DNA of 33,361 nt from Desulfobacterales bacterium (GCA_030145595.1 JAQYVG010000003.1:1-33361), one strand, 5' to 3'. Shown: positions 8,070 through 25,911, numbered from the stretch's first letter. Notes: generated by a model from the sequence alone, not told the origin. Numbers and translations: made by a program.

Positions 8070-8390
8070 TATCAGATCGGCCTATTCTTGATTCATAGGG
8101 AAGCTCTGTCCGGTCTTTTCCATATGGTGACATCTGCACCTTTGCATCTAACCATCCAAATCAACGGTCTATTCTCACCTTGTATCCCAGAAACGTACAG
8201 GAAATCCACCAATCATCTAGCGTAATCATTCTCAATTCCGGTCAGTTGTGTCCAGATGAGTTTTTGAACACTACAAGTTTCACGGTTATCACAAAATCAT
8301 CACCAATACAGATATCATAATTTTGTTTAATATGATTTTGCTGTTACTGACAGTAGAATGGGATTGGAGTGTTGGTTGGACTTGCACGCC

Positions 8391-9356
8391 CTATTTTTTG
8401 GGGCTAACAACAGATTTGGGCGATTGATACATTCCTTTGATTTTATAATACAAATCATACAGATGGACGGCCATGATCGCCGTGATCAACCTGGGCACCC
8501 ACAGCCAGAAAGCACTGAGTCCTAACGGTAGAAACAGCGCCGGATCCTCGACCATAGAATGATTGATCCCGATGGAAAAATGGAGTCTTTCAAGCTCTCG
8601 GGCGGTAAGATTTCCTTCTTTGGCTTCTTCCACTATCACCGCGCCTCCATAAGCAACCCCGAATACGGTTGCCGTCAGCCATAATATGCCGACTCTTTGG
8701 TCCAGACCCATGGTCTTTAAGAGAGGAGTCAATATCTTAACGAGATGAGGAATCAGGTTGAAGCTTTTCATGGTTTCAAGAATTATCATTAACACCATGA
8801 TGATAACGAAAATCTTGAAGCTAAGATACAGCATCGCTACAAACCAGCTTTTCAGCATAATCAGCATAGGCGGATGGACTGCAACCGACGCGCCTATTGG
8901 TGCAGGCGTTGCTGAGTCCGGTTTGATGAAAAAAGAGATCGCCGTTACGGTTACGATAGAAGCTGTCAGGCGCAAAAGGGTGGCTCTAACCGGGTTCAAG
9001 CCCGACTTTCCCTGAATAACCCCTTCTTGTATTAGATTATGGGAAATGAGCACAAAATTAGCGATAAGCGTCATCTGTACAATGGTAAGAGGAAGCATGG
9101 CCATGGCGGCAATGCATCCGTATATTCCGGTCAGCATACCGGCAATAAGCGGCAGGGCGGCTACCGGCGGCAGGTCCAGCAGGTTCATGCCGGGTTTTAA
9201 AAGAAAATCTATTTTATATAACCAGCCGCTGTATTCAAGCAGAGCGGTCAAGAAAGATATGGGTATAAGGATTTTGAGCATCCAGATAAACCCGCTCAAC
9301 CCTTTTTTAACACCGGACCTCAGACTCTGCTTAACTGTGCGTTGAATGTTTTGCAT
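8391..9356 (-). CDS. Polytopic membrane protein with nucleoside-recognition (Gate) type domains
   Basis: Multiple hydrophobic helices. 'LKILIPISFLTALLEYSGWL...LPPVAALPLIAGMLTGIYG' resembles Gate-domain proteins (FeoB C-terminal / YlbJ-like). Start set to ATG 9356, 4 nt after the upstream gene stop. ORF-track start 9398 would overlap it by 38 nt. Confidence 0.6.
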   Translation of the reverse strand: MQNIQRTVKQSLRSGVKKGLSGFIWMLKILIPISFLTALLEYSGWLYKIDFLLKPGMNLLDLPPVAALPLIAGMLTGIYGCIAAMAMLPLTIVQMTLIANFVLISHNLIQEGVIQGKSGLNPVRATLLRLTASIVTVTAISFFIKPDSATPAPIGASVAVHPPMLIMLKSWFVAMLYLSFKIFVIIMVLMIILETMKSFNLIPHLVKILTPLLKTMGLDQRVGILWLTATVFGVAYGGAVIVEEAKEGNLTARELERLHFSIGINHSMVEDPALFLPLGLSAFWLWVPRLITAIMAVHLYDLYYKIKGMYQSPKSVVSPKK

Positions 9357-9360
9357 TTCA

Positions 9361-10650
9361 TCACTGCTTCGGACTGCAGGCAATGCCGTCCGATACAAGA
9401 TGCTTAAGCTTTTGCTGCAGAACCCTGTAAGAAAAAAAACGTTTTGCTATTTCGTAGTTTTTCTCTACCATGGCCTGGCGGCGTTGCGGATTCTCTAATA
9501 CCTCCCGCGTCTGACTTACAGCCTCCTCGGACACATACCCGTCGATCTCAATCACATCAAAGCCCTTGGGCTGGATATCAAATGAATAAATTGAATAATT
9601 GTTCACAACTATCGGTTTTTTAAAATATATGGCTTCAAGAAAGGCATTCCCAAACCCTTCAAAATTGGACGGATAGGTTACCAGGTCGGCATGGGGATAA
9701 ATATCATCCAGGGTGTAGATTTTTTTCCCTTGTTTAGTATACTCTCTGCATTCATTGACAATGCCTGACGCAAACATCGTATCAACCTTCAAAAGTTTGG
9801 AATATTCCTTGACCCTATCTTCATAATCGTAACCTTCATCCCCGGAAGCATGGGAAATAACCAGTCTGGCTTTCTTGCCCAGCCTGTGCACAATTTCGAT
9901 GGCATGTTCAATCCCTTTGCGCTTAACAACCCGGGTCGGCTGAAGGATTAAAAGCTCGTCTTTCTCAAGACCGAGAGAATGTCGCACATCGGAAGCATAA
10001 TCATCAACCGGCGGCGGCGGGTTTTCAAAATCCATGACATTCGGGATAGTAGTTGACGAAATACCGGTCCTGAGGCTTAATTGATTGTCAGCCGAAGAGT
10101 TGATAACCACATGCTTCATTGACGGCAAATGGGGCGGAAACGCCATATTCAGGTATTCCCAGACCGCATTCGTAAGAAAATGCTTGCGCTCCCAGAAAAA
10201 ATCGTGATGGTGGGCTATTGCCGGCATTCCTGTTTCAGATATCACCTCTGTAATAGCTATACCAAGGGGGACATTCAGCGGAATCGTCAGCGAATTTTCC
10301 GGCACTAAAAGTTCTATATTAAATTTTTCGATAAATCTGTAAAGTTCGTCTTTTAACTTTTCTTTAAATTCATAAATTTTTTTCGTAAGGCGTCGCTCGC
10401 GCTTGCGGACACCAAAGCAGTTTTCGTAAATATCTCGAATTTCAGGATGGCGAAAATACGCTTCTTCTACCAGATAGGAACGATCTTCCGGACGGTCGAG
10501 TCTTCCGGCAAAGTAATAGCAGTTACACCCATTCTTTTCAAAAACATCAGCCCATTTTGCGGCCTCCAGGGAAACGCCGTCCGTCCCCGCAAGACGTGTT
10601 GCAACAAATCCGATATTGTGTTTCTGACCGCAGATTTCACAGTGACTCAT
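9361..10650 (-). CDS. Glycosyltransferase family 4 (GT-B, group 1)
   Basis: C-terminal E-x7-E motif 'EGFGNAFLE' and a GT4-like N-terminus 'IGFVATRLAGTDGVSLEAAKW'. AAGGAG RBS. Confidence 0.7.
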   Translation of the reverse strand: MSHCEICGQKHNIGFVATRLAGTDGVSLEAAKWADVFEKNGCNCYYFAGRLDRPEDRSYLVEEAYFRHPEIRDIYENCFGVRKRERRLTKKIYEFKEKLKDELYRFIEKFNIELLVPENSLTIPLNVPLGIAITEVISETGMPAIAHHHDFFWERKHFLTNAVWEYLNMAFPPHLPSMKHVVINSSADNQLSLRTGISSTTIPNVMDFENPPPPVDDYASDVRHSLGLEKDELLILQPTRVVKRKGIEHAIEIVHRLGKKARLVISHASGDEGYDYEDRVKEYSKLLKVDTMFASGIVNECREYTKQGKKIYTLDDIYPHADLVTYPSNFEGFGNAFLEAIYFKKPIVVNNYSIYSFDIQPKGFDVIEIDGYVSEEAVSQTREVLENPQRRQAMVEKNYEIAKRFFSYRVLQQKLKHLVSDGIACSPKQ

Positions 10651-10685
10651 CTTGCGCTCCTTGTTTGCGAGACCTTTGCAGGCCC

Positions 10686-10733
10686 AAAAAAAACGCTTTT
10701 CCCCTTAATCTCGGCATGCGGGAAAAACGCTTT
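10686..10733 (-). terminator. Rho-independent terminator after the FHA/kinase operon
   Basis: Minus-strand RNA: GCGUUUUUCCC-loop-GGGGAAAAGCG (about 10 bp including one G-U pair), followed by U8. Confidence 0.6.
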
Positions 10734-10803
10734 AATGTTGTATCCAATCTTGCTCTACACCCTTATTCAGGCGGGACATTCTCAGGTAAACCGGATCGTA
10801 TTA

Positions 10804-11508
10804 TTATTTCTCAGTGTAAAACTGCAGCTTGACCGAACCTACCTCGATTTCATCGAAGTCTTCAAGAGCGACCGACGCTTTTACAGTCTCACCATTGACC
10901 TTCGGTTTGGTCATACCACCCACATAACTTAATGAATATCCTTGGGGTCTCTTGCTTATGGTTGCAGCGGTCGCCCCCATCATGAAGCCGCCTATCACAA
11001 TATCACAAGTGTCACTCTTCCCTATTTTGGTAAGCTTCTTGACAAGCTTTATTTCCCCCTCACCGCCGCTCAGATATGACAGCATACCTACCGGTTCCTT
11101 GGCCTCTGCCGTTGCACCCTTGGGTATGGCCTGGGCCAGCATATCCCGATATTTGTCCGTATCCATAACCATGGTCTGATCCATGCTGGCGGCAGCTTCA
11201 TCCGGTTGTTTCTCACCTTCATCGTAAGTAAAGATCAGGGTATGCTTGCCGATAAGAATGTTGTCGCCATCTTTAAGCCAGTGAGATGAAACAAGTTCCT
11301 TGTTTACAAAGGAACCGTTTTTACTTTGCAGGTCCGTCAGTAAAAATCCTTCACCCACAGAGTCTATCTTGGCATGATGCCCGGAAACAGCGAGGTTCTC
11401 GATCGGCACATTGTTACTTGCCTTCCGACCTACCGTCATAGACTGCCCCTCTTCAATGCGATAAGTAGCGATGGTGTTATCTTTGAATGTAAGTGTCAAA
11501 GTCGGCAT
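10804..11508 (-). CDS. FHA-domain protein (canonical N-terminal FHA plus degenerate FHA-like C-terminal module)
   Basis: N-terminal 'TVGRKASNN...VSGHHAKI...DLQSKNGSFVN' carries the GR / S-x-x-H / S-x-NG signature. The C-terminal 'IGKSDTCDIVI...KVNGETV' follows the FHA pattern without the pThr-binding residues. Confidence 0.85.
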   Translation of the reverse strand: MPTLTLTFKDNTIATYRIEEGQSMTVGRKASNNVPIENLAVSGHHAKIDSVGEGFLLTDLQSKNGSFVNKELVSSHWLKDGDNILIGKHTLIFTYDEGEKQPDEAAASMDQTMVMDTDKYRDMLAQAIPKGATAEAKEPVGMLSYLSGGEGEIKLVKKLTKIGKSDTCDIVIGGFMMGATAATISKRPQGYSLSYVGGMTKPKVNGETVKASVALEDFDEIEVGSVKLQFYTEK

Positions 11509-11524
11509 TGCAGTACCCTCATTT

Positions 11525-12343
11525 TTAATGAAATATTTTTTTCATAATCTGTGAAATCATTCCCATGATTCCGCCTTTTTCATTATCAGCTTTTATTTTT
11601 ACTACAATAACGGTTATATTATCATCTCCACCACGCTCATTGGCTAAATCTACAAGCGTCTGGCAGGCCTTTGCAGGCTGTTCTGCTTTGACAATATCGA
11701 GAATTTCTTCAGGAGATACCTTGTCGCTAAGGCCATCGGAACTGATGGTCAGAATATCGCCTTTAAAACATTGGATCTCACAGACATCAGCTTCTACCGT
11801 TGCTTCAACCCCCATGCCCCGGGTGAGCATGTGTCTAAAGCGCGGGTCCAGTTTCTGGGCCATTTCAGGATTGATCGCCATCTGCTCTGACATCACGTTG
11901 TGGGTCACGGACAGCAGTTCGATGCCTCCGTCATGCACCAGGTATACCGGGCTGTCACCCACATTGGCCACAATCATAGTATCGCTGGTAAAGAAGGCCG
12001 CCGATACGGTGGAACCCATCCCTTTATAGTCTTCATTACTTTGTGCTACCTGGTGGACACCTTGGTTGGCCATGTTGATACTGGAAAGCAGCCGGTTGGC
12101 CTCTTTGGAAAGGGTTTCGTCGGGGTCCTCCATCTCTTCGACATCGCCCTCCTCTTTGAAACGCTTCATGTAATCTCGTATGGTATCTACCACCAGCGCA
12201 CTGGCCACTTCACCGGCCAAGTGTCCACCCATGCCGTCGGCCACCATGTAAAGCTTCAGGTCATCATCAAGATAGAAAGAATCTTCGTTGCCTGTCCTTT
12301 TTTGACCAACATCAGTAATTGCTGCAGATTCTATGGCAATCAT
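11525..12343 (-). CDS. PP2C-family Ser/Thr protein phosphatase
   Basis: 'DVGQKRTGNEDSF', 'ADGMGGH', 'SSDGLSD' and 'GGDDNITVIV' form the full PPM metal-binding motif set. Confidence 0.92.
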   Translation of the reverse strand: MIAIESAAITDVGQKRTGNEDSFYLDDDLKLYMVADGMGGHLAGEVASALVVDTIRDYMKRFKEEGDVEEMEDPDETLSKEANRLLSSINMANQGVHQVAQSNEDYKGMGSTVSAAFFTSDTMIVANVGDSPVYLVHDGGIELLSVTHNVMSEQMAINPEMAQKLDPRFRHMLTRGMGVEATVEADVCEIQCFKGDILTISSDGLSDKVSPEEILDIVKAEQPAKACQTLVDLANERGGDDNITVIVVKIKADNEKGGIMGMISQIMKKIFH

Positions 12344-12567
12344 AATTGATACTGTAAGGCTAGACTGTTTATCTGGATATAAAACAAACCGTGCTTATCG
12401 AAGGCTCGATAAACTCTGGGTTTATCATTGAAACTTTTGACAATTAATCTACCTATTAAGATAGGTGACCTATATTACAAAAATACAGTTAGGTCAAGTA
12501 TTTCGTTGCCGGGCGCAGCTATACCACCAGCGGCCGTCATTGAGAGATCTGTAAAATTCGCTTAAGA

Positions 12568-15099
12568 TTATCCCGATGTCTTTTTAGCCATAACAGCATC
12601 GATCTTTTGCCCGAGCATTCTTAGATGGCTGCACAACTGGGACGCATTTTTATAACGCTTTTCGCGGTCCTTTGCCAGGGTATTGCCGATTATGGTTACA
12701 AGCGGTTTTACAATTTTGGGGTTGAATTTTCTCGGGTCCGGATGAGGAACATTCATTATCTGGTTCATCAAGGCCATAGGGTTTTCGCCGCGAAAAGGGA
12801 GTTCGCCGGTAAGCAGCTGAAACAGCATGACCCCGACTGAAAAGATATCAGATCTTCCGTCGACCTTTTCACCGGCAAACTGTTCCGGTGACATGTAGTA
12901 GGGGGTCCCCTTGACTACGCCGGACTGGGTATGGGAGGTTGCCGCGATTCTGGCAATGCCGAAATCGGTAATTTTTACAACACCTGTTTTCAAAAGCATT
13001 ATATTGGCCGGTTTGATGTCTCGATGAACGATCCCTATCTTGTGAGCATACTCCAGCGCATCGCTGATGTCAGCAATATAGTCAATAACCTTACGCATGG
13101 GCAGGAGTTTATCTTTTTTGGTATATTTACTCAGGTCTTCACCTTCTAAAAATTCCATGGCGATGTAGGCCAAATCCTGCTCATCACCGGCATCGTAAAT
13201 GGTTACGATATTGGGGTGCGAGAGGGTCCCGGCACTTTCAGCCTCCCGGAAGAACGCCTCTTTCATCTTCTCGGCTTCTTCGGGCTCGAAGTCATCGGCA
13301 AACCGTACAGTCTTGATGGCGGTGGTCCTGTTAATGCGCGGGTCCTGGCCCAGGTAAACCATACCCATGGCACCTTTGCCCAGTTGTTTGAGCACTTCAT
13401 ACCTGCCCAAGGTCGGGCGGGTACCGGTAGTGCCGGACAAAAGTTCGTCTCTTGGAGGTCCGCTCAGGAAACCGTCACCGAATATCATGGTCTCGCTGGT
13501 CTGAACCAACTTCTTTTTGCGTTCAGTCACATCCTTGAATTTGGCATCATGTTCTTCAATATATTCAAAAACGGAAGCCGCTTTATTATATTGCCGTTTT
13601 CTTTCGTAGTCCAAGGCAAGGTTGTAGAGGACATCCTTCATTTCGTCGTCCACCGGTACCCGGCGCAGCTTGTCAAAGGCCATGTCCAGCATCCCCTGGC
13701 TTTGAAATGAAAGTCCCAGCATTCGATTTGTTTCAGCAGATTCAGCTTCCACCTTTTCTTTGCGAGTCTCGGTTACAAAATATTTGATACTGACCACACC
13801 GATGTAGCCCAAAACAAGCTGCAAGAATGGGTAAGTAATCCAAACCCAAAGGCCGCCTGAAACAAATAAATAAGTCGATCCCCCAGTAAGGACAATCAGC
13901 AGAATAAAAAAAACAAGACCCGCAATCCCGGCTTTTACTCTCGGCAAAACAAAGGTGATTATCAGCCCTAAAACAAGTATCATCACAAGCTCTGCGGATG
14001 AACCCCAGGCAGGCTGTTGAATAAATTGTTTGTTAATAATGGACCAGATGGTGTTGGCAGAGAGTTCCCCATCAGGCATGATTGGATCGGTGGGTGTACT
14101 GAACAGATTCCCGATTCCCGCAGCAGATGCGCTTACTAAAACAAGCTTGTTTCTAAAGACGCTCGCAGAAACCTTGTCGTTGATGACGTCAAAAAAGGAA
14201 TAGCTCTTAAAAGAGCCGCGGGGACCTTTGAAGCTGATCATCATCTCAGTACCCCAGGTAGTCGGAATCTCCAGGCTGCCCAGATAAACGGCCGAACCCA
14301 AAACAGCCCGAATTTCACTGGTTGGCAGGTTCAGATACTCGGCCGCCAGCTTTACCGTATATGAAGGGATGTAGAGTCCTCGATATTCATATAAAAGCCG
14401 CTCACGCCTGGCCGTTCCGTCCATGTCAGGCGCTATGTTGATGTGGCCGATTCCTGTGGATGCTTTGAACAGGGTGTCAAAGGGCAGGGCTATTTCAGCG
14501 GCCCTGGGGGCACCCAACCCCTCAGGATCACTAACCATCCGGATAGATTGATCAATAATGCTCTCGTCGGTTTCTGCCGGGCCTTCAATGCCCGCCGCTG
14601 ACATTTTGAAAAAAACCGGGAGAACAACGTTGCCGGCTGCATGCAGCGACGCGGTTAATATTTGGTCGTTATCCAGCCTTGCCTGGGATTCCCTCATGGT
14701 CTCTAGAAACATTAGCCCTTGTTCGCCGGTGAGATCCAGCATCGTTTCGGAAAAAAGTGCATCGAGATTCTTCAACACCTTTAAGCCGGTGCTTTCCTCG
14801 GCTTCACTTAAAATAATATTGAGCCCGATAACTCTGGGTTTGCCTGCACTTATTTTTGTAATGCCTTGGGCTAATAGGGAGCGGGGCCAGGGCCAACGCC
14901 CGATCTTCTCAATGGAGTCGTCATCAATATCCACAATGACAATATCACTCGGACTCTGGGGATCACTCCTCAACTCCATCATTACATCGTAGAATTTGAA
15001 TTCCAATGTGTCGAGAACATTCATGCTGAACAACACGATAAAGATGACCGTTATAACCAGGCCCAGAGCTTTTTCCGGATGTCTTTTGAGAATGTCCAT
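12568..15099 (-). CDS. CHASE2 sensor domain / transmembrane / C-terminal Hanks-type Ser/Thr protein kinase
   Basis: N-terminal TM helix followed by the CHASE2 hallmark 'IVIVDIDDDSIEKIGRWPWPRS'. A block of TM helices sits mid-protein, followed by a TPR-like helix pair. Kinase motifs: 'LGKGAMGMVY', 'AIKTV', 'HRDIKPANIM', 'DFGIA', 'YMSPEQ'. Confidence 0.9.
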   Translation of the reverse strand: MDILKRHPEKALGLVITVIFIVLFSMNVLDTLEFKFYDVMMELRSDPQSPSDIVIVDIDDDSIEKIGRWPWPRSLLAQGITKISAGKPRVIGLNIILSEAEESTGLKVLKNLDALFSETMLDLTGEQGLMFLETMRESQARLDNDQILTASLHAAGNVVLPVFFKMSAAGIEGPAETDESIIDQSIRMVSDPEGLGAPRAAEIALPFDTLFKASTGIGHINIAPDMDGTARRERLLYEYRGLYIPSYTVKLAAEYLNLPTSEIRAVLGSAVYLGSLEIPTTWGTEMMISFKGPRGSFKSYSFFDVINDKVSASVFRNKLVLVSASAAGIGNLFSTPTDPIMPDGELSANTIWSIINKQFIQQPAWGSSAELVMILVLGLIITFVLPRVKAGIAGLVFFILLIVLTGGSTYLFVSGGLWVWITYPFLQLVLGYIGVVSIKYFVTETRKEKVEAESAETNRMLGLSFQSQGMLDMAFDKLRRVPVDDEMKDVLYNLALDYERKRQYNKAASVFEYIEEHDAKFKDVTERKKKLVQTSETMIFGDGFLSGPPRDELLSGTTGTRPTLGRYEVLKQLGKGAMGMVYLGQDPRINRTTAIKTVRFADDFEPEEAEKMKEAFFREAESAGTLSHPNIVTIYDAGDEQDLAYIAMEFLEGEDLSKYTKKDKLLPMRKVIDYIADISDALEYAHKIGIVHRDIKPANIMLLKTGVVKITDFGIARIAATSHTQSGVVKGTPYYMSPEQFAGEKVDGRSDIFSVGVMLFQLLTGELPFRGENPMALMNQIMNVPHPDPRKFNPKIVKPLVTIIGNTLAKDREKRYKNASQLCSHLRMLGQKIDAVMAKKTSG

Positions 15100-15158
15100 A
15101 TTAAATCCCTCGGCTCCCTATATTTAACCTCGATAGAGCGTAAATCCTTAGTGTAGCG

Positions 15159-17015
15159 TCAAGCATCATATCTGCGGGTCTTATCATCAAATTCGACCTC
15201 TTGCACCAAAGCAACGCTGTGAAACTCTAGGATTGTTTGCGGAGCAAGCTGTATTTTTGCACCATTGTTTAAGGTTACACCAGTGGCGAGCACTCTTTTT
15301 TCGTCGACCTTGATACCATTTTTGCTGCCCAAATCACGGATATAGAACCGGCCGTCATCAAAATAGATCTCGCCGTGCTTCCGCGATACCGACCGGTCCG
15401 GAATACAAATCGTATTATCGCTGCTACGCCCGATAAGCGTAGTCCCGGCAACCTTAAAACTTTTCCCGGTCTCAAGGCTATCGCTCTCGACGACTTTAAC
15501 CGCAGCGGGCGGCACCGTCTGCAGATCTTGATCATCCTCCATAAAGACGGTTTCATCTTCTATGTCCGCTGCCGGCACTTCATCCAAAGCCGTGGTTTTG
15601 TCCGGCTTGACCGGGACCACAACCGTCTGCCGTTGCCTGTTGATAAACCACCAGGTAATCCCGCCGGCAAGGGCCAGCAGTACAACGAGTCCGGCGATCC
15701 AGGTCATCGCAGGTTGCGCTCTTTGGTCCTTACCGGCAGCCGGCGGCGGTGCCGGCCGGGTCAATCCAGCCACTTTTAGAGTCATCTCGGCTGATCCGGT
15801 CCGTCCGTTGACGTCGATGGCTTCGACACGCAAGATATGGAGTCCGCCGGGAAGTCCGGCCGTATCCCAGTGAAAAATATCAAACGGAGCAGTTGCACGC
15901 TCTTCTTTTAGGCTGGCACCTACATAGTATCTTACTTTGGCAATCGCTCCCTGCGGTTTGATGCTTGTTTTTACCGTTACAACGCCTTTGACATGCTCGG
16001 CTGTACCCGGCTCGACAAAGCTAATGCTCAGCGGCCGGGAAACCGGCAGCGGCGGTGACCAGAAACGCTTTTCATCCTGCCTGCGGGCACCTGCATGCTG
16101 AACCTTCATTACCAGCGTGTGCTCTCCACTTGGACTGTGAGTAATATAGGTAATTAGATACTGATTTTTCAGTTGATTGGCTATGGCCCGGTAAAGCCCC
16201 TGAAGATCGGATAGAGAAGTCGCCAACAGATTCCGCCCTCCGGTGAAACTGGCTATGCGACCGAGTTCCCGGGCATCAACCTTGGGGCCCACTCCGATAG
16301 TAAAAATCGGTACGCGAATAGATTTGGTGGTGGCGACATCGATCACATCGTTGGCCGTGTGCATACTGCAGGCACGCCCTGCTTTCTCATCCTTACCGTC
16401 CGTGAGCAGGATGATTGCCCGCCTTCCTCTGGGAATCTCTGCTGCTTTTTGAACAGCCTCAAAAGCTGTATCATATAAACACGTGGCTGCATTCGGTTTG
16501 GCGGCCAGTGCATTAACGGCCTTAATGACCGCGTCGTGATCGGTTGTAAAATCCACTTTTAGGCTCGGTTCATTATTGAAACTAAAAAGTGCCACCCGAT
16601 CATCCCGGGACAACATGGAAATGAAATTGACAGCAGCCTTTTTAGCTGCGGTCATCGAGGTCTGGCCGGCACTCCTGGCCTGCATGCTTCCGCTAGTATC
16701 AATGGCTAGCACAACGGTCATAGGATCGGTGGCGGGAGACACATCGTCAACGGTAACCTTCCTGCCGTCTTCAAGAATTTCAAAATCTGTGTCCGACAGC
16801 CCCAAAACGGGATTATTATCAGCAGCGGTCACACTGGCATATACGCGCACCTGATTTGCAGACTTGTCGGCAGCCGTTACGGTCTCGATATAGTTGATGG
16901 TCAACTCTTTGATGGATTGGCCCCACGCCGGCACAGTCATGGTAACCACTACCAATAAGCAGACTGTCAGGTATATTTTAACTTTACAATTCAAGCGGTT
17001 TTGCTCCACCGGCAT
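15159..17015 (-). CDS. Signal/TM - vWA domain - Ig-like domain - TM helix - C-terminal FHA domain protein
   Basis: MIDAS 'VLAIDTSGSM' plus 'LLTDGKDE'. TM helix 'WIAGLVVLLALAGGITWWFI'. FHA 'LIGRSSDN...VSRKHGEI...DLGSKNGIKV'. Start set to ATG 17015, preceded by GGAGGAGG. Confidence 0.85.
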   Translation of the reverse strand: MPVEQNRLNCKVKIYLTVCLLVVVTMTVPAWGQSIKELTINYIETVTAADKSANQVRVYASVTAADNNPVLGLSDTDFEILEDGRKVTVDDVSPATDPMTVVLAIDTSGSMQARSAGQTSMTAAKKAAVNFISMLSRDDRVALFSFNNEPSLKVDFTTDHDAVIKAVNALAAKPNAATCLYDTAFEAVQKAAEIPRGRRAIILLTDGKDEKAGRACSMHTANDVIDVATTKSIRVPIFTIGVGPKVDARELGRIASFTGGRNLLATSLSDLQGLYRAIANQLKNQYLITYITHSPSGEHTLVMKVQHAGARRQDEKRFWSPPLPVSRPLSISFVEPGTAEHVKGVVTVKTSIKPQGAIAKVRYYVGASLKEERATAPFDIFHWDTAGLPGGLHILRVEAIDVNGRTGSAEMTLKVAGLTRPAPPPAAGKDQRAQPAMTWIAGLVVLLALAGGITWWFINRQRQTVVVPVKPDKTTALDEVPAADIEDETVFMEDDQDLQTVPPAAVKVVESDSLETGKSFKVAGTTLIGRSSDNTICIPDRSVSRKHGEIYFDDGRFYIRDLGSKNGIKVDEKRVLATGVTLNNGAKIQLAPQTILEFHSVALVQEVEFDDKTRRYDA

Positions 17016-17114
17016 CGCCTCCTCCCCAAACTTATAAAGTATAATTAAAGGCCCTTTAAGTGTCAACTGGAACAACGAGACCTTTGAACTGAAACAGCAG
17101 AATTGATTGGGAGT

Positions 17115-18968
17115 CTATCTTTTCAGGTCCTTGACAACGAATGCTTTGAGATCGGCTTCTATTTCCGGATGTTTGGTTTTAATCACCTTGGGCTGGACAT
17201 TGACCAAATGATAAACGCGCTCATAAACAGTTTGGCTGATGACGACTTCACCTGCTGCGGCGCCATCGCAATACCTGGATGCACGGTTGACAGTGTCGCC
17301 GATGACCGTATACTCCAAACGTTCCGCGGACCCGATGAAACCGTGGATGACTGCACCTGTGTGAACACTGATGCCTACGTCAAAAACAGGCAGCCTGCGC
17401 ACTTTTCTTCCTTCTCCCAGCTTGCTGACCGCCCGCTGCATTTCCAGCGCCGCCTTAACCGCCTTTTCACATTGATCGTCGTCTTTTTCGGGACTGCCGA
17501 ATACCGCTAAAACCGAATCTCCGACATATTTGTCCACAACACCGTCATGTTCGAAAACTATGGGAACAAAGGCATCGAACATCTCATTGAGCATCCGGAC
17601 AACTTCGTCCGGCTCCATCTCGGCACTAAGCGCGGTGAAGCTGCGCACATCCGAAACGAGAATAGTAACCGGATCCACTCTTTCTCCTCCGGCCCGTAAA
17701 CGGCTGTCTGTAGCGCAAATTCGTTTGGCAATCTTGGGGGAGAACTGCCTTGAAAGATGAAATCGCAGTTCTTTTTCTCGTTTGAGGTCTTTTCGTAATA
17801 TGTGATCCCTGACAAACATCGCCACCTGGTTGGCAATGGCGCGCATCAATTCCAGATCGGTTCCAAAAAACGCTTCATGGGTTAAATAGTTGTCAACGTA
17901 CATCACTCCCAGAACCTGCTCTCCCAGCAGCAGCGGAACATAAATCGCCGACTGTACGCTGTAGTAAATAGCACTTTCAGGCGTATCATTTCCCTTATGG
18001 CTTTCAGCAGCAGACCAGATAAAAGGCTCACGCCTGTCATAAGCCCGTTTGATCCAGGTCATGCTAACGGAATGATCCCCCTGGGGCCAGTGAGCTTTGA
18101 GAAGCAGCTCGCCCCGCTCGTCCGGCAAGAGAACGGCTCCGCGCTGGGCGTTGGGAATCGCCTGTTGCAAATGTTCGACCAAAATTTGCACCAGAGAATC
18201 CAGTGTGTCGGCTGCACTTAGCATATGACAAAGGTCGTTGAAAGCGGTTAATTGCCGCCGCGACCGGGCAAGCATTTCATCCGCAGAATCATGGCTGGAT
18301 ATCGCATGCTGAAGTGTCGTAATATCCTTTAAATCAACAATAGTCCCTTCGAGAGCCGGGACTGGAACCGGTTCCGCAACAGGTGGCATCGGCCCCACGA
18401 AGTTTGTAACAATGGTTGCAGATTCCGGTGCCTTATCTTCGTCGGATATGTCAACTTTGGGTTCCACCAACTCTGAAATCAAAACGTCAGCATCCGTATC
18501 ATGGCCTGGATCATCAGCGGATGGTATCGGCTCCACCTGCTTCCTGGTTATGGTGGGAGAATCCGGGAACGGGCCGGGAGCGGATACAGGCTCTTCCGGT
18601 CCTATCTGCTCCATTAAACTGGTGGGGGAATCCGAAACCGGACCTGGATCGGGTTCGGATGCCGGCGGTTCCATCTGAACTTCAATCATCGTCCACCCAA
18701 TCTGCACCTTATCCCCCGGTTTCAGCCGCGTTTCGGTTTTAATTGCAGCTCCGTTCACCAAGGTACCATTGGCACTGCCCAGATCTTCAATCCAATATTC
18801 ATTGTTTTCAAAAGTAAGGCATGCATGAATATGGGAAATATAATCATCTTCTACCAAATCGATATCAATGTACTGGTCGGGAGAAGGGTTGCGGCCGAAG
18901 ATGATCGAATTCGATTCAGTCTCAAACTGTTTCGGCGCTTGTAATGGCAGCGAATAACTGATTATCAT
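17115..18968 (-). CDS. FHA - acidic/Pro-rich linker - GAF - class III adenylate cyclase
   Basis: FHA 'IIFGRNPS...ISHIHA...DLGSANGTLVNG'. GAF-like 'RGAVLLPDERGELLL...AIYVPLL'. Cyclase 'VTILVSDVRSFTALS', 'DKYVGDSVLAVFG', 'EYTVIGDTVNRASR'. Start is ATG 18968 (alternative GTG 19007). Confidence 0.88.
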   Translation of the reverse strand: MIISYSLPLQAPKQFETESNSIIFGRNPSPDQYIDIDLVEDDYISHIHACLTFENNEYWIEDLGSANGTLVNGAAIKTETRLKPGDKVQIGWTMIEVQMEPPASEPDPGPVSDSPTSLMEQIGPEEPVSAPGPFPDSPTITRKQVEPIPSADDPGHDTDADVLISELVEPKVDISDEDKAPESATIVTNFVGPMPPVAEPVPVPALEGTIVDLKDITTLQHAISSHDSADEMLARSRRQLTAFNDLCHMLSAADTLDSLVQILVEHLQQAIPNAQRGAVLLPDERGELLLKAHWPQGDHSVSMTWIKRAYDRREPFIWSAAESHKGNDTPESAIYYSVQSAIYVPLLLGEQVLGVMYVDNYLTHEAFFGTDLELMRAIANQVAMFVRDHILRKDLKREKELRFHLSRQFSPKIAKRICATDSRLRAGGERVDPVTILVSDVRSFTALSAEMEPDEVVRMLNEMFDAFVPIVFEHDGVVDKYVGDSVLAVFGSPEKDDDQCEKAVKAALEMQRAVSKLGEGRKVRRLPVFDVGISVHTGAVIHGFIGSAERLEYTVIGDTVNRASRYCDGAAAGEVVISQTVYERVYHLVNVQPKVIKTKHPEIEADLKAFVVKDLKR

Positions 18969-19377
18969 AGCCTTCTTGTGACATTTGTTTTGATCAAGCG
19001 GAGGCACGGCTCTGCCGTTGTTTTTGCATGGCGAAACGTTATTGAAGTTCCCTGTGGTCCCGATTATCTGGATCTGCGCTGCGGCAAACTACGATGAATA
19101 CACTCGCTGTTTCAGTTTAAAATGAAGCTTCAAGGTGATCAACACCGGTTGGCTCAAGCATGTCGTCAAAACCGTTATCGGATGATTTCAATTAAATACA
19201 ATGACTTGTGTCAATTTGTCAAGAAGAATCGGCCGGTCGTCATATGCATAAATGAAGAAATCGGTTGCGAAATCGCAGTATCTCCGCTATTTTCTAACCA
19301 GTGTTCCTATTTGAGTCTGAATTTCTGTTAAAGAAGTTATCCGGCTTTATTTCTTAAAATAATTGAGGAGAAATATT

Positions 19378-19857
19378 ATGCCAAATGTTGACGTGCTTGA
19401 AATTCTACTACAATCTAAGGTGTTTAAGGGACTTTCTGATGAACATTTAAAAAAGTTTGCCGACCGTGGTGATATCGTTACCTTTGAAAAAAATGAAACA
19501 ATCATAAGCGAAGACCAAGCCGGACACCCTTTTTTTATTGTCATCAAGGGCCAAGTAGAAGTCGTTCTTCCTGAGCCAGCCTCGGGTCAAGATTCCGAAA
19601 GGGTTACAAGGATAAAGCTAAACCTGCTGGAGCAAGGTGACTGCATCGGGGAATATTCTCTGATAGACGAACAACCGGCATCTGCTACAGTGATTGCGCT
19701 GGAACCTTGCATACTTTTTGAAATTTCTAGATCGCATTTTGAAGAAATTATTAACATCAGTGATTTTATCGCCAAGACTGTTTATAAAAACATCCTTTTA
19801 ATCACTATCGAAAGGGCTCGCGACGGTAATCGGCAACTCGATATATGCTTTTATTAG
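19378..19857 (+). CDS. Stand-alone CAP/Crp-type cyclic-nucleotide-binding-like domain protein (no DNA-binding domain)
   Basis: 'FKGLSDEHLKKF...FEKNETIISEDQAGHPFFIVIKGQVEV...GDCIGEYSLIDEQPASATVIA'. The GE of the phosphate-binding cassette is present, but the cassette Arg is Ala. GAGGAG RBS before ATG 19378. Confidence 0.7.
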   Translation: MPNVDVLEILLQSKVFKGLSDEHLKKFADRGDIVTFEKNETIISEDQAGHPFFIVIKGQVEVVLPEPASGQDSERVTRIKLNLLEQGDCIGEYSLIDEQPASATVIALEPCILFEISRSHFEEIINISDFIAKTVYKNILLITIERARDGNRQLDICFY

Positions 19858-19975
19858 TGCCTAATCAATCGTTTATAGAGAGTCTCCAAGAGATCGCTTT
19901 GGGAAAAATGCGATTACTATCGCCGTAATATACGAAACTGAGTTTAACAAACAGAAAATTATTGCGAGGAACGGC

Positions 19976-20374
19976 ATGATATACATAGCTAATTTTCTTC
20001 ACGTCACCGACCAGCAAGAAGTTTTGGAATCCGAACGAAGACATGGTGAGTTCAGCCTGATCATCGAATCCGGTAGCCATGAGACCGCCATGCAAAAGTT
20101 CAAAGATCGAATCATCGCATTCAGGGAATCGAGCGATTTCTTTCAAGGCGACTGCCGCATCTTTTTTACACAGCTTTTGGAGTTTGATTCCTTTCCCAAA
20201 ATTGAAGCTATCATGCTGAATTACAAATCGATAGTCGGAGACCCCTTTTTACCATTTATCGGCTGTTCTATCCCAACCGGAGAATCAGATGCCTGCCGCA
20301 TTTTTGATTGGGAAAACAACATGCCGGAAATTGATGGTAAAAACGAGTATCTTTTTCTGGAATTTAAAGATTGA
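19976..20374 (+). CDS. Hypothetical protein (132 aa), no recognisable motif
   Basis: GAGGAA RBS. The stop overlaps the start of the downstream acyltransferase. Preferred over the overlapping 93-aa antisense ORF. Confidence 0.45.
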   Translation: MIYIANFLHVTDQQEVLESERRHGEFSLIIESGSHETAMQKFKDRIIAFRESSDFFQGDCRIFFTQLLEFDSFPKIEAIMLNYKSIVGDPFLPFIGCSIPTGESDACRIFDWENNMPEIDGKNEYLFLEFKD

Positions 20375-20952
20375 ATTATACCATTTTCGATACTCCCGTG
20401 TTGAACATCTTTTTGCGCTGGTTTTCGCTAATCGTCTTAAAAATTACCGGGTGGCGTACGCACGGCCGGCTGCCGGCTACTCTTAAATTTGTGCTTGTCG
20501 GTGCTCCCCATACTTCCAACTGGGATCTTCCATACGCGTTATTCATTATTTTTGTTCTCAGGGGTAAAATATACTGGTTGGGAAAAGAGTCCTTATTTCG
20601 CCGGCCGCTTAAAGGGTTTTTCAAATGGCTGGGAGGCATACCGATTGACCGATCCAAATCGAAAAACGTTGTGGCCCAGTCAATTCAACAATTTCATCAG
20701 AATGAAAAGCTGATTCTTACGATAGCACCGGAAGGCACCCGTTCAAGGGTCAAAAAGTGGAAAACAGGATTCTATCATATCGCCAAAGGCGCAAACGTTC
20801 CCATTGTACTGGGCTTTCTCGATTATCGACGCAAAACTGGAGGAATAGGTCCGGTGATTTATCCAACCGGAAATGTTGATGCGGACATGGAAACTATCAG
20901 AGCGTTTTACGATGGTATCACAGGTAAATTTCCTGAAAAATCAATGACCTAA
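20371..20952 (+). CDS. PlsC-family (lysophospholipid / 1-acyl-glycerol-3-phosphate) acyltransferase
   Basis: H-x4-D motif 'HTSNWD' and motif III 'APEGTRS', after an N-terminal hydrophobic segment. TTG start overlaps the upstream TGA (alternative GTG 20398). Confidence 0.75.
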   Translation: MNYTIFDTPVLNIFLRWFSLIVLKITGWRTHGRLPATLKFVLVGAPHTSNWDLPYALFIIFVLRGKIYWLGKESLFRRPLKGFFKWLGGIPIDRSKSKNVVAQSIQQFHQNEKLILTIAPEGTRSRVKKWKTGFYHIAKGANVPIVLGFLDYRRKTGGIGPVIYPTGNVDADMETIRAFYDGITGKFPEKSMT

Positions 20953-21013
20953 TTTCAAAGCAATTCTCATAATACAGAACTTATTTTCTGCCCTCAGATC
21001 CCCTTGGCACGAC

Positions 21014-21159
21014 GTCTTGTCGGGTCGTCTTGTCGGGTCGAAGCCGGAGGCGAAGACTGAAGCCGGAGGCGTAGCCTGAAGCTTTAGCGTAGGCGGCCCT
21101 GGCGCGACGTAGCTTTAGCGAAGGCGGCCCTGGCGCGACGTAGCTTTAGCGAAGGCGGC
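21014..21159. repeat. Composite GC-rich tandem repeats: 13 nt x2, 19 nt x2, 31 nt x2.5
   Basis: gtcttgtcgggtc at 21014-21026 and 21027-21039. gaagccggaggcg at 21040 and 21059 (19-nt period). gctttagcgNaggcggccctggcgcgacgta at 21081-21111 and 21112-21142, with a partial copy at 21143-21159. Confidence 0.85.
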
Positions 21160-21452
21160 TGACCCCTTGAACTGTAATTTGGAGATGATCCATAAAAGTA
21201 GACTTTCCTTCTGGTTAAATTCGTGTTATTGGTTTTCAGCTTACATCCGGAACTGCAATCCAGCCTTAACAAGTGTCCATCCAGAAATGAGGATTTTTGT
21301 CCAATATCAAGGCATGCGAAAAAAATAACCACAGGCATATGTGTAATATTTCGAGGATTATTTTTTGAGCATAACGCAGAGATTGGGCCAAAAGACCATT
21401 TGTGGATGGGCACTAATTAAATTTTCTCACCTTAAAAATCAGGAGGTAGCGT

Positions 21453-22370
21453 ATGCGAATCTTACTAATCGGCCAAGCGGCATTTGCCGCAAAAACGTTG
21501 GAAAGTATGCTGGCGAGGGGCGACGACGTTGTGGCGGTTTACGCACCGCCGGACAGGCCCGGCGGCCGGCCGGACCCCCTTAAGGATACGGCCGCTTCCA
21601 AGGATATCCCGGTTTATCAGCCCACAACGTATAAAGATGATCAGGTGTTTGCCGAGTACAAGGAACTCAAACCGGATCTCACTGTTTTGGCGTTTGTCAC
21701 GGATATTATTCCGGCACGCTATTTCGAAGTTCCCACGCAAGGGGCTATCTGCTACCATCCTTCGATCCTGCCGCGCCATCGAGGGGCCAGCGCCATTAAC
21801 TGGGCCGTGATCATGGGGGCTACCAAAACCGGGCTGACGATATTCTGGCCGGACGGCGGTATCGACACCGGTGAAATCCTTTTGCAGAAAGAAATTGACG
21901 TAGGTCCGGGCGATACCACCGGTTCCCTCTATTTCAACTACCTTTTCCCCATGGGAGTGGAGGCCATTTTAGAATCCATCGATCTGATCAAAGCAGGTAA
22001 TGCTACCAGAATTTCTCAAGATGAAGCCGAAGCCACCTATGAACCGCCCTGCGATGACCGTGTAGCCGGCATCGACTGGTTCAAACCAGCTCCAGAGGTA
22101 CACAATCTTGTACGCGGCTGCGATCCCCAACCCGGGGCCTTCGCCATGTTCAAGGATGAAAAAGTTCGTTTATATGGTGCAAGACTCATGGAGGAGTCCC
22201 ATGACAAGGCACCGGGAACAATCCTCCAGATTGATGATCAAGGTATACAAGTGGCGGTCTCGGGCGGTAAACTGGCCGTCTCCAAGGTCCGGGCGCCTGA
22301 CATCGGAAAAGTCGCTGCGGCCGAATTTGCCGCTGAGAAAGGGCTGAATGTGGGAGATATGTTAACCTAA
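21453..22370 (+). CDS. Formyltransferase family protein (Fmt-like; resembles the N-terminal hydrolase domain of 10-formyl-THF dehydrogenase)
   Basis: 'MRILLIGQAAF', 'YHPSILPRHRGASAINWAVI', 'GLTIFWPDGGIDTGEILLQKE'. The catalytic His and Asp context is conserved. AGGAGG RBS. Confidence 0.8.
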   Translation: MRILLIGQAAFAAKTLESMLARGDDVVAVYAPPDRPGGRPDPLKDTAASKDIPVYQPTTYKDDQVFAEYKELKPDLTVLAFVTDIIPARYFEVPTQGAICYHPSILPRHRGASAINWAVIMGATKTGLTIFWPDGGIDTGEILLQKEIDVGPGDTTGSLYFNYLFPMGVEAILESIDLIKAGNATRISQDEAEATYEPPCDDRVAGIDWFKPAPEVHNLVRGCDPQPGAFAMFKDEKVRLYGARLMEESHDKAPGTILQIDDQGIQVAVSGGKLAVSKVRAPDIGKVAAAEFAAEKGLNVGDMLT

Positions 22371-22431
22371 TCCGGCTGGTGAGAAAATCATAGATTCTCA
22401 ATAAGTACAGACAAGTTAACTGTGCATCATC

Positions 22432-22508
22432 ATTCTGGATGCCCGCCTTCGCGGGCATGACAGGGTTCTGGTACGTTAGTCATTCCCGCGAAGGCAGGAA
22501 TCCAGAAT
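22432..22508. repeat. REP-like palindromic element pair (inverted 30-nt arms, each containing a GC-rich hairpin)
   Basis: attctggatgcccgccttcgcgggcatgac (22432-22461) against gtcattcccgcgaaggcaggaatccagaat (22479-22508), reverse complements with a few mismatches. This is the widespread 'IPAKAGIQ / AFAGMT'-type intergenic repeat. Confidence 0.7.
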
Positions 22509-22591
22509 AAATTATTTGCAAAAAAAAGACCTTTGAAAATGCCTGCAACGGACATTTTCAAAGGTCTTGTATTTTAATATGTATTTCCTTT
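22497..22591. repeat. Copy 1 of a ~95-nt repeat carrying a terminator hairpin (copy 2 at 27521-27615)
   Basis: Aligned by eye over 95 nt without gaps. I count roughly ten mismatches, most of them in the left third. Same orientation. Confidence 0.8.
22520..22576 (-). terminator. Rho-independent terminator (possibly bidirectional) between the convergent formyltransferase and GcvH-like genes
   Basis: Stem AAGACCTTTGAAAATG / CATTTTCAAAGGTCTT (16 bp). An A8 run on the + strand gives U8 after the hairpin on the minus strand. A weaker T-rich tail follows on the + strand. Confidence 0.7.
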
Positions 22592-22717
22592 ATCCAGCGG
22601 GAGGTTTACACTATCGTTGCATACATAACACATCGAGCTTTGATAAAAATATTATTTTTTGCAACGTTTATTAAATTCAGAATCCTACTATGGATCCGGG
22701 CACAAAATTATTGACGA

Positions 22718-23647: not shown

Positions 23648-23725
23648 TTTATTTTCCTCCTAATTTTTACCTGTTTTTTATTATCGTTTTTTTGTTTGTT
23701 GACTCGATTATTAGCAAGAGTTATT

Positions 23726-23741
23726 AGCAAGAGCTGTGCCA
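23726..23741 (-). promoter_or_regulatory. Sigma-54 (RpoN) -24/-12 promoter TGGCACagctcTTGCT (minus strand)
   Basis: Exact consensus match, about 80 nt upstream of ATG 23647. It sits directly downstream of an operon encoding a sigma-54-dependent response regulator. Confidence 0.8.
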
Positions 23742-23956
23742 CCATGTAACAGAATGAAAAAAAAGATTATAACCATCTGATATTTTACATATTAATTTTC
23801 AAGGGATTGCAACAGGTTCCAAAGCTGTATGTCGGACTGCCTAAATATTCGGCAAACAATATTTATCATAAAACTGGAGAATGGCGTAACCTTCTGATTA
23901 TTAGATAAATATAGAGGGTGCCGAAAAACAAGACAGGTTGCCGAGAATATCGACAT

Positions 23957-24517: not shown

Positions 24518-24523
24518 GGTGAT

Positions 24524-25876: not shown

Positions 25877-25911
25877 TGTCGGCTCCTTCCATTTTCAATA
25901 ATGCATTACAA

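Follow-up and report, generated by a model that had tools for sequence, protein, structure and literature searches.

Bacterial signalling through Hanks-type kinases and FHA domains and signalling through cyclic AMP (cAMP) are usually studied as separate networks, and we know of no FHA-bearing adenylate cyclase with an established link to a kinase that supplies its phospho-threonine (pThr) or to a docking partner. Here we analyse a five-gene cluster in a 33,361-nucleotide stretch of DNA from a sulfate-reducing Desulfobacterales bacterium (GCA_030145595.1, JAQYVG010000003.1:1-33361; hereafter the window, with positions counted from its first letter). The cluster encodes an FHA-GAF-class III adenylate cyclase and a vWA-Ig-transmembrane (TM)-FHA protein, together module A, and a CHASE2-kinase, a PP2C phosphatase and a tandem FHA protein, together module B or the triad. 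To judge from the sequences, the balance is about even that the two modules form a composite pThr/cAMP signalling cluster, with module A feeding cAMP under kinase/FHA control.

FHA-gated second-messenger cyclases have one structural precedent, DgcB of Bdellovibrio, an FHA-GGDEF diguanylate cyclase gated by a pThr peptide; as here, a canonical N-terminal FHA domain is fused to the cyclase, and pThr binding is proposed to rearrange the catalytic dimer (PMC6733907). Unlike DgcB, the enzyme of the window is an adenylate cyclase of class III, and a GAF domain comes between its FHA and cyclase domains; it also has genes for a candidate kinase and phosphatase as neighbours in its cluster, whereas no kinase is known for DgcB. 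The window's cyclase also has no N-terminal tail ahead of its FHA domain, so that either the vWA-FHA protein or the kinase would probably offer the ligand in trans. The cyanobacterial Cya1 combines a putative N-terminal FHA domain with a class III adenylate cyclase; to our knowledge it has no GAF domain, no known vWA-FHA partner or dedicated kinase/PP2C cluster, and no established way in which the FHA domain regulates the enzyme.

The mycobacterial and corynebacterial PknB/PknG-GarA/OdhI-PstP systems resemble the locus in that a kinase of Hanks type and a PP2C are joined by a small FHA protein whose flexible segment beside the FHA domain carries a conserved, phosphorylatable Thr motif, and the FHA domains described here are nearest to those of GarA, OdhI and FhaA in sequence and fold. 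They differ in that the Thr motif here lies in a linker C-terminal of the FHA domain, toward a second, degenerate FHA domain, whereas GarA/OdhI regulators have a single FHA domain with an ETTS phospho-motif on its N-terminal side, and that the sensor here is CHASE2 rather than PASTA or TPR; unlike in those systems, no RodA/PbpA genes or metabolic-enzyme targets are evident at the window locus. The tandem FHA protein scores 64.2 bits against the GarA/OdhI model NF041660 (cut-off 200), which matches its FHA domain only, and the kinase 311.5 bits against the PknB/Stk1 PASTA equivalog NF033483 (cut-off 450), which matches the kinase domain alone. With these sub-threshold NCBIfam scores and the context genes missing, membership of the GarA/OdhI regulators, of the PknB-PASTA kinases and of an actinobacterial division cluster was rejected. 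Though no member of that family, the tandem FHA protein may, by analogy, work like GarA.

For type VI secretion (T6SS), two reports describe a PpkA/PppA/Fha1/TssL threonine-phosphorylation pathway with a periplasmic vWA domain, a kinase of Hanks type, a PP2C phosphatase and an FHA reader of membrane-protein pThr (PMC1262709, PMC3953482), the membrane protein bound by Fha being TssL (PMC3953482). There the vWA domain sits on the kinase (PpkA), here on a separate FHA protein, and the output here is a cyclase. The T6SS model TIGR03354 (TagH) gives 36-50 bits against a cut-off of 120.25, and no T6SS genes are found among the open reading frames (ORFs) of the window, so we rejected membership of this pathway too. 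In Sulfolobus the FHA domain of ArnA binds ArnB, a vWA protein, at its phosphorylated C terminus (PMC6509490), to which a conserved C-terminal Thr motif of the vWA-FHA protein corresponds. The DRA0331-DRA0334 operon of Deinococcus radiodurans likewise clusters genes for a vWA protein, a Ser/Thr protein kinase, an FHA protein and an FHA-PP2C (bioRxiv 10.64898/2026.01.23.701218). In the Arn and Deinococcus systems vWA and FHA domains are on separate proteins, whereas here a periplasmic vWA domain is fused through a TM segment to FHA, and a cyclase, CHASE2 and GAF are present only here. CHASE2-kinases as such occur in cyanobacteria (PMC2176072).

Composition of the cluster

The five genes are minus-strand ORFs within 10804-19007 (Table 1). 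An initial annotation made from the sequence alone had named their domains, and Pfam hidden Markov models recovered every one of them. It had also listed one intact kinase, one intact PP2C, three canonical FHA domains and one degenerate one, and this parts list of writer, eraser, readers and cyclase was correct: all catalytic motifs are present, the enzymes are intact by sequence, GR, SxxH and NG are found in three FHA domains, and the C-terminal half of the last protein has GK and has lost SxxH. The terminator that it placed at the cluster end was recovered, and the predicted topology fits its proposal of extracytoplasmic sensors, with periplasmic vWA/Ig and CHASE2 modules. That it knew of no characterised representative of this composition agrees with our literature searches, which turned up no characterised FHA-GAF-cyclase and vWA-TM-FHA pair, CHASE2-kinase/PP2C/tandem FHA triad or fusion of the two, and no FHA-adenylate cyclase/kinase pathway. 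The parts, and the association of kinase, PP2C, FHA and vWA genes, are already known; the combination is uncharacterised. In an NCBIfam scan of the five proteins no curated equivalog was reached (Stp1 PP2C, PknB-PASTA, OdhI, FhaB and TagH all stayed below cut-off), and the one subfamily model passed was TIGR03436, by the vWA domain (100 bits, cut-off 81.25).

Table 1. Coordinates of the cluster genes and of the sequence features discussed in the text
Feature	Position	Strand	Basis
Module A gene 1, FHA-GAF-class III adenylate cyclase (predicted), 617 aa	17115..18968 (ORF to GTG 19007, 17115..19007)	-	Pfam: FHA 2e-17, GAF_2/GAF_3 2.7e-12, Guanylate_cyc 1.6e-25
FHA domain of cyclase gene	~18696-18902	-	
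GAF domain of cyclase gene	~17814-18209	-	
Cyclase domain of cyclase gene	~17211-17684	-	
Module A gene 2, vWA-FHA protein: signal peptide; vWA with MIDAS (periplasmic) and Ig-like Big_7; single TM; linker (cytoplasmic) and FHA	15159..17075	-	Pfam: VWA 2e-17, Big_7 1.8e-5, FHA 9e-19
Module B gene 1, Hanks Ser/Thr kinase with CHASE2 sensor, TPR-like linker and four TM segments	12568..15099	-	Pfam: CHASE2 (PF05226) 2.6e-59 over aa 17-380, Pkinase 9e-57
Module B gene 2, Ser/Thr phosphatase of PP2C (PPM) type, cytoplasmic	11525..12343	-	Pfam: PP2C_2 8e-16, PP2C 6e-15
Module B gene 3: tandem FHA adaptor, canonical N-terminal FHA and degenerate C-terminal FHA-like domain	10804..11508	-	Pfam: FHA 7e-22, and a second, weaker Yop-YscD_cpl (FHA-like) stretch
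Predicted internal sigma-70-like promoter	12470..12497	-	TTGACC (-35) at 12497-12492, then TGTAATATA as extended -10-like
Stable hairpin and weak T-run, putative PP2C leader	12393..12414	-	dG -13.4 kcal/mol, z -4.56 vs shuffles
Intrinsic terminator, cluster end	10686..10733	-	14-bp stem + U8, dG -17.8 kcal/mol
4.1-kb segment, module A and its upstream region, missing from L041/L120	15145..19247	.	blastn collinearity
Stand-alone cNMP-binding-domain protein, 164 aa	19363..19857	+	Pfam: cNMP_binding 1.1e-19; divergently transcribed
GT4 glycosyltransferase, directly downstream	9361..10650	-	Pfam: Glycos_transf_1 5.8e-14

The cyclase most likely begins at ATG 18968 instead of GTG 19007, because its homologues are 617 aa long, and residues are numbered here from that ATG. 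More than 260 homologues share the FHA-GAF-cyclase architecture; an exact look-up of the window's own cyclase sequence found no match on record. In an alignment of 22 sequences the class III residues are invariant: metal-binding D440 and D484, substrate-binding K480 and T554, and transition-state N561 and R565. The nearest solved cyclase domains are 2w01 and 6fht, the latter a bacteriophytochrome-adenylate cyclase fusion, and the query Lys is Glu in 2w01 and Lys in 6fht. From the Lys/Thr pair and established knowledge of class III enzymes we infer an adenylate-specific, IIIb-like cyclase. Its FHA domain carries the canonical motifs (G25/R26/S45/H48/N67/G68), and its GAF domain a conserved NKFDE-like pattern (N360...F367-x3-D371-x-E373), which is presumably linked with cyclic nucleoside monophosphate (cNMP)-binding GAF domains.

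The vWA gene probably starts at ATG 17015. Hydropathy places a signal/TM segment of its product at aa 30-52 and a TM segment at aa 455-479. The metal ion-dependent adhesion site (MIDAS) is complete, with D126-T-S128-G-S130, T198 and D226 invariant in 19 homologues, as are the FHA residues G549/R550/S564/H567. Two Thr motifs are found in 19 of 19 homologues, DIEDETVFM (Thr codon ~15549-15551), about 25 aa N-terminal of the FHA domain, and DDKTRxYD (Thr codon ~15177-15179) at the C terminus, the one comparable to that of ArnB; both are kept even in homologues with no kinase nearby.

The kinase has the Hanks motifs LGKGAMGMV, TAIKTV, VHRDIKPANIM, ITDFGIA, ATSHTQSG and YMSPE, with an activation loop of the form ATSxTQ(S/T)G, and TM segments at aa 7-34 and within aa 363-443, as fits a CHASE2 protein. 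Between the last TM segment and the catalytic domain lies a juxtamembrane Q(T/A)SETM(I/V)FGDG (Thr codon ~13489-13491), of which SETM(I/V)FGDG is kept in 17 of 19 kinases; L113 and L095 have the variants SENMVF and GETNVL, respectively. The PP2C contains the metal motifs VADGMGGH and GGDDNITV and scores 204.6 bits with Stp1_PP2C_phos, the Stp1/IreP equivalog (cut-off 230).

The tandem FHA gene starts 16 bp past the PP2C stop, and its N-terminal FHA domain is canonical (G27/R28/S42/H45/N64/G65). The two halves of the protein align to each other (hhalign E 1.8e-5), and by its sequence the C-terminal half is a diverged duplicate of the N-terminal FHA domain. An AlphaFold model contains two beta-sandwiches (pLDDT 70), and the Foldseek matches of the model included the tandem FHA of EssC, GarA, OdhI, FhaA and the FHA domain of DgcB. 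The linker MDQTMVMDTDKY (M-D-Q-T-M-V-M-D-T-D-K-Y; T112 codon ~11173-11175) is invariant in all 21 sequences aligned. This protein has more than 2200 homologues, many of them 65-70% identical, and is better conserved than the cyclase over the same range.

Two modules and their linkage

We compared the window with 124 related loci (handles L001 onwards). An alignment of 22 cyclase homologues led to 30 loci from GTDB species genomes, exact-protein look-ups added more, and a metagenome scan with a tandem FHA alignment yielded 80 further loci; the domains of the window were mapped onto them by tblastn and phmmer. The initial annotation had seen a self-contained five-gene circuit. That description holds only in part, as the cyclase and vWA-FHA pair and the kinase-PP2C-tandem FHA triad are each conserved alone: judged by gene content, the locus is two separately conserved modules side by side and not one indivisible unit. 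Each module is far commoner without the other, and module B, a sensor, eraser and adaptor set of wide occurrence in Desulfobacterota, is much more widespread than module A.

Conservation of the five-gene order, by which that annotation would have had its circuit judged, is mixed. The full order recurs in at least five distinct lineages, at cyclase identities of 56-99%. It was found in L001, in L003 (a single-cell genome), in L013, in L031-L033 and, from the metagenome scan, in L047; cyclase identity is 79% for L001, 67% for L003, 56% for L013 and 70% for L031-L033. These loci usually carry a cNMP-binding-domain gene, divergently oriented, on the upstream side and a gene for a GT4 glycosyltransferase downstream. 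On the other side of the ledger, the modules are mostly found apart. Outside the five-gene clade just the cyclase and vWA-FHA pair persists. The two genes are adjacent in 16 of the 21 Desulfobacterota-type genome loci, mostly without a kinase nearby, either on the same strand (L005, L007, L015, L020, L021, L027, L028, L034, L036) or convergent (L006, L014, L018, L030, L035), and, apart from a PP2C at L014, neither a kinase nor a PP2C lies within 10 kb of the pair-only loci.

Several relatives of the cyclase stand in other settings. At L014 (11614-15309, minus strand) a set of a compact Guanylate_cyc-FHA protein (310 aa), vWA-FHA and PP2C is convergent with the FHA-GAF-cyclase, so that the vWA-FHA gene sits between two FHA-bearing cyclases; L026 has a similar Guanylate_cyc-FHA gene. 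In a short-linker subgroup (L004, L010, L011) two ABC exporters come next. In Anaerolineae (Chloroflexota) the FHA-GAF-cyclase is followed by a Zn-ribbon-FHA-FHA-ABC transporter (L022 11698-14529, L024 11597-14392), an architecture that we take to resemble Mycobacterium tuberculosis Rv1747; other Anaerolineae homologues are followed by unrelated genes. A worm-symbiont-like clade has a PatA_N-domain protein between the cNMP-binding gene and the FHA-GAF-cyclase (L034 9134-9631, L036 9127-9630).

The kinase-PP2C-tandem FHA order was found in nearly every locus of the metagenome scan with enough upstream DNA, amounting to dozens of loci. The gene ahead of the triad is module A in L047 (truncated in L048 and L066); a CHASE2-cyclase in L037-L039 (long contigs), L050-L062 (mostly one worm-symbiont organism) and L113; and unrelated in L065, L076, L080, L083, L089, L090, L094, L095 and L101. 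The uncharacterised Desulfobacterales CHASE2-cyclase clusters L037-L039 and L113 are alike in having orthologous kinase, PP2C and tandem FHA proteins (64-70% identity) and, directly upstream of the kinase, a Lys/Thr cyclase of class IIIb type; they differ in that this cyclase is a membrane CHASE2 protein with no FHA domain, GAF domain or Thr motif. In the window, module A directly precedes the kinase, in the slot of the CHASE2-cyclase of other lineages. In eight relatives (L003, L013, L045, L047, L048, L065, L066, L085) a Pkinase and cNMP_binding fusion flanks the triad. It is about 430-460 aa long with an intact RTA in its C-terminal cNMP domain (L003 12794-14182, minus strand; L085 5342-6634, plus strand), looks by its domains like a bacterial cyclic-nucleotide-dependent protein kinase, and is not present in the window. 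The triad has thus been joined to cyclic-nucleotide genes in several non-orthologous ways, which is the strongest comparative argument suggesting a tie to cAMP. The initial annotation had overlooked this recurrent linkage to cyclases and cNMP proteins, together with the divergent cNMP gene next to the cluster.

Close relatives bring out the boundary between the modules. Contig L041, 90-97% identical to the window in DNA (about 91%), is collinear with it over 25519..19248 and 15144..8317 (blastn), and it lacks exactly the cyclase and vWA-FHA genes, leaving the cNMP-domain gene divergent from the kinase, although the contig might conceivably be a chimeric assembly. The same arrangement is found in L120, a contig of a metagenome-assembled genome (MAG) at NCBI (JACNIG010000217). 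In MAG GCA_016342285.1, whose proteins are 53-70% identical to those of the window, module A lies on contig 35 (L015) and a CHASE2-cyclase with the triad on contig 4 (L038). The cNMP gene has been lost from L001, where the junction ahead of the kinase contains an unrelated insert about 250 bp long. L040 (98.7% identical) has 253 extra bp at window position 15148/15149 (L040 202-454), with a hairpin and short direct repeats, and three independent assemblies (L121-L123) end 125-250 bp upstream of the kinase. We read these contig breaks as strain heterogeneity at a hypervariable junction.

A candidate route from phospho-threonine to cAMP

All candidate components of a pThr-to-cAMP route are encoded together in the window, and the comparison singles out threonines in DETVFM, DDKT, SETMIF and DQTMVMDTD. 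The predicted phosphorylation sites are T509 and T633 of the vWA-FHA protein (counted along the 638-aa ORF from TTG 17075, hence 20 lower from ATG 17015), T537 of the kinase, and T112 and T117 of the tandem FHA protein. A pattern that we defined after viewing the sequences and that is suggestive rather than statistical, [DEQSG][EQG]T[MVIL][VIFM][MFDGV], matches the cyclase and the kinase, vWA-FHA and tandem FHA proteins once each, and has no match in the PP2C, the cNMP protein, the glycosyltransferase or the CHASE2-cyclases. FHA domains recognise the pT+3 position, and the common acidic-Thr-hydrophobic shape of these sites fits a single kinase specificity together with pT+3 recognition. The conserved ET-hydrophobic Thr motif in linker or juxtamembrane stretches of the kinase, vWA-FHA and tandem FHA proteins suggests a docking interaction, written by the kinase and read by FHA domains, that would gate cAMP synthesis.

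In such a pathway the CHASE2-kinase would answer a periplasmic cue, autophosphorylate its activation loop and the juxtamembrane SETM(I/V)F threonine, and phosphorylate acidic E/Q-T-hydrophobic motifs, the juxtamembrane DETVFM of the vWA-FHA protein and the linker DQTMVMDTD of the tandem FHA protein. Readers of the resulting phospho-threonines would be the three canonical FHA domains. The soluble cyclase would dock through its N-terminal FHA domain on the phosphorylated vWA-FHA tail or on the kinase juxtamembrane site, and docking would alter its dimerisation or activity and hence cAMP synthesis. The GAF domain might provide a second input, by a small ligand, and the vWA MIDAS ectodomain a second extracytoplasmic one; the tandem FHA protein would serve as a GarA/OdhI-like phospho-switch adaptor, and the PP2C would reset the system.

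We go one step further only tentatively, in a proposal that is on balance doubtful: the vWA/MIDAS-Ig-TM-FHA receptor and the soluble FHA-GAF cyclase would be an undescribed two-protein transmembrane cAMP route, in which the cyclase is recruited and switched by a pThr/FHA handshake that the CHASE2-kinase writes, the PP2C erases and the tandem FHA protein buffers. If true, this would be a bacterial receptor-kinase-to-cAMP cascade, and the window lineage would be the one case in which writer, eraser, readers and cyclase are encoded together, so that it could be reconstituted directly.

More generally, the locus offers a well-defined, reconstitutable candidate for a coupling of Ser/Thr phosphorylation to cAMP. 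Were the coupling real, it would be a new gating mode for a class III cyclase and a parallel to the FHA gating of DgcB in c-di-GMP synthesis. It would also assign a function to the vWA-TM-FHA and tandem FHA families, of which sulfate reducers of marine sediment and symbionts of worms each have many uncharacterised members. Were it not, the locus would still be a clean case of signalling-cassette shuffling at a hypervariable junction.

A number of observations weigh against coupling of the two modules. They are unlinked in most genomes and module A is missing from a relative that is about 91% identical, so the coupling is not obligatory. The CHASE2-cyclases that precede module B elsewhere have neither an FHA domain nor the Thr motif, so that the link there would be parallel sensing and not pThr docking; a Thr motif common to the cyclases heading module B was ruled out by its absence from them, and the coupling looks like parallel sensing in L037-L039 and L113 and pThr-FHA docking in the window. 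The linker of the window's own cyclase is variable and rich in Pro, Asp and Glu, E-G-T-I-(V)-D being its sole semi-conserved stretch. With no more than this weak EGTI(V)D motif, we ruled out the linker as a conserved phospho-acceptor, and the cyclase may therefore be a reader only. The Thr pattern, as said, was drawn up post hoc. Finally, the window's cluster appears to encode no evident cAMP receptor. The candidate for one, the divergent cNMP protein, is weakened by an Arg-to-Ala exchange and by its persistence beside the kinase where module A is missing. We took the phosphate-binding cassette G-E-x(8-9)-R-[ST]-A as the mark of a cAMP receptor, and in this protein (GEYSLIDEQPASA) PASA replaces RSA/RTA in 5 of 5 members of the window clade. 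RSA/RTA is kept in small cNMP proteins by module A of distant relatives (L020, L021, L028, L034, L035), in the stand-alone cNMP protein of L085 and in the kinase-fused cNMP domains.

The modules could be chance neighbours and functionally independent, module A having landed in a hypervariable spot upstream of the kinase; other kinases would then act for its FHA domains, and the triad would have a different target. We regard this as unlikely, though well short of negligible. It would account for the absence of module A at the same site in L041 and L120, for the separate contigs of GCA_016342285.1, for the many module A loci (most of them) with no kinase or PP2C within 10 kb, and for the variable junction, with its 253 extra bp in L040 and three assemblies breaking 125-250 bp upstream of the kinase. 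It would not lead one to expect that the fusion of A and B is kept across lineages diverged to 56% cyclase identity, that the triad elsewhere is repeatedly joined with other cyclases or cNMP-binding kinases, that module A has two FHA domains and phospho-acceptor-like Thr motifs and no kinase of its own, or that the vWA-kinase gap of the window is 59 bp, with no shared promoter region. We think it quite improbable that the triad has the synthesis of envelope or exopolysaccharide as its principal output, with the tandem FHA protein controlling an adjacent glycosyltransferase pathway and the cyclase being a side branch or an input. A GT4 gene does follow the tandem FHA gene in the window and many relatives, and in L037-L039 the triad is embedded among rml genes, a GT2, an epimerase, PMT_2 and PBP genes; however, a terminator separates the tandem FHA gene from the glycosyltransferase gene in the window, glycosyltransferase genes are common everywhere, there is no direct FHA-glycosyltransferase link, and the recurrent cyclase and cNMP-domain partners would be left unexplained.

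The direction of signalling might also be reversed, with a cyclic nucleotide or GAF ligand as the input: FHA would place the cyclase in a kinase complex, and cAMP would tune Ser/Thr phosphorylation, for example through cNMP-binding kinases. The kinase fusions adjoining the triad in eight relatives and the NKFDE-like GAF pattern are in keeping with this; yet the window has no cNMP-binding kinase, the only cNMP-domain protein of its cluster lacks the key Arg, and the ligand specificity of a GAF domain is not readable from sequence, so that we give the reversed direction very little credence. Most improbable of all is an anti-phage or conflict system, either Pycsar-like (cyclase and cNMP-binding effector) or vWA-centred. 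PADLOC returned domain-level matches to PycC (cyclase domain), PycTIR (cNMP domain) and PD-T4-6 (kinase), the glycosyltransferase has a borderline GT4-conflict match (26.9 bits, cut-off 26), and an insertion sequence (IS) lies about 3 kb away. The PADLOC matches, however, span generic catalytic or binding domains only; the cNMP protein, at 164 aa, has no effector domain; the cyclase residues are Lys/Thr, of adenine type; no MoxR/VMAP partner is found; and the synteny across relatives is of a stable, housekeeping kind (fmt, an acyltransferase and a GcvH-domain gene). Membership of Pycsar itself was rejected, there being no TIR/TM effector fusion, a lost phosphate-binding Arg and purine-type cyclase residues. 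A composite cluster in which the kinase and FHA domains would control cAMP synthesis by module A is the reading that we prefer.

Transcription units and neighbouring genes

The initial annotation had treated the five genes as a single operon with short gaps. The genes are co-directional, and the gaps between cyclase and vWA, vWA and kinase, and PP2C and tandem FHA genes are indeed short (39-99, 59 and 16 bp); the kinase and PP2C genes, however, are 224 bp apart, with a hairpin and a conserved promoter-like block in between, so that a single operon is doubtful. The block, CAAC-GAAATACTTGACC-N13-TGTTATATA (12497-12470), is the sole one conserved in the kinase-PP2C spacer in 7 of 7 five-gene relatives. 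Its strict pattern is found in 15 of the 51 kinase-PP2C spacers examined, some with a canonical TTGACT-N14-TGCTATAAT. Because of this promoter-like block between kinase and PP2C genes, there are probably at least two transcription units, cyclase-vWA-kinase and PP2C-tandem FHA.

The spacer hairpin is placed between the predicted promoter and the PP2C start codon, and its conservation extends to close relatives only (the window, L041 and L001); it could be a leader or attenuator. A generic promoter/terminator scan, which listed this hairpin as terminator-like, was otherwise uninformative, with 25 promoter-like sites against 11.6 expected, and it overlooked both the cluster terminator, whose loop exceeds the limit of the scan, and the conserved spacer motif. 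Rfam gave no matches over the whole window, hence no known riboswitch or leader in the long spacers.

Orthologues of the cNMP-domain gene are divergent from the cluster in L003, L013, L031 and L041 as well. On the other side, a glycosyltransferase homologue follows the tandem FHA gene, directly or one gene on, in L001, L003, L031, L040-L043, L046-L048, L055, L061, L066 and L076, and the GT4 glycosyltransferase is possibly part of the physiological output. An IS-type transposase with an rve_3 integrase core and helix-turn-helix domains (6990-8069, plus strand) lies about 2.7 kb downstream of the cluster terminator. Some 7-10 kb downstream of the terminator are a second GAF-class III cyclase, with no FHA domain (2786-4159, plus strand), and a GAF-sigma54 activator (646-2208, minus strand), the region being rich in genes for cyclic-nucleotide and GAF signalling. 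Upstream of the cluster, at a distance of 5 kb, lies a pair formed by a PAS-HisKA-HATPase sensor kinase and a response-regulator sigma54 activator (24524-27453, minus strand), and a similar sigma54 response regulator comes after the glycosyltransferase in L031. Farther upstream, a molybdopterin oxidoreductase (27616-29652, minus strand) is split into two ORFs by an in-frame TGA at 29245-29247, in the context NNVDHCARL*HSSTV, which we take to resemble the selenocysteine site of formate dehydrogenase alpha subunits; the two ORFs are probably one selenocysteine-containing FdhA-like gene.

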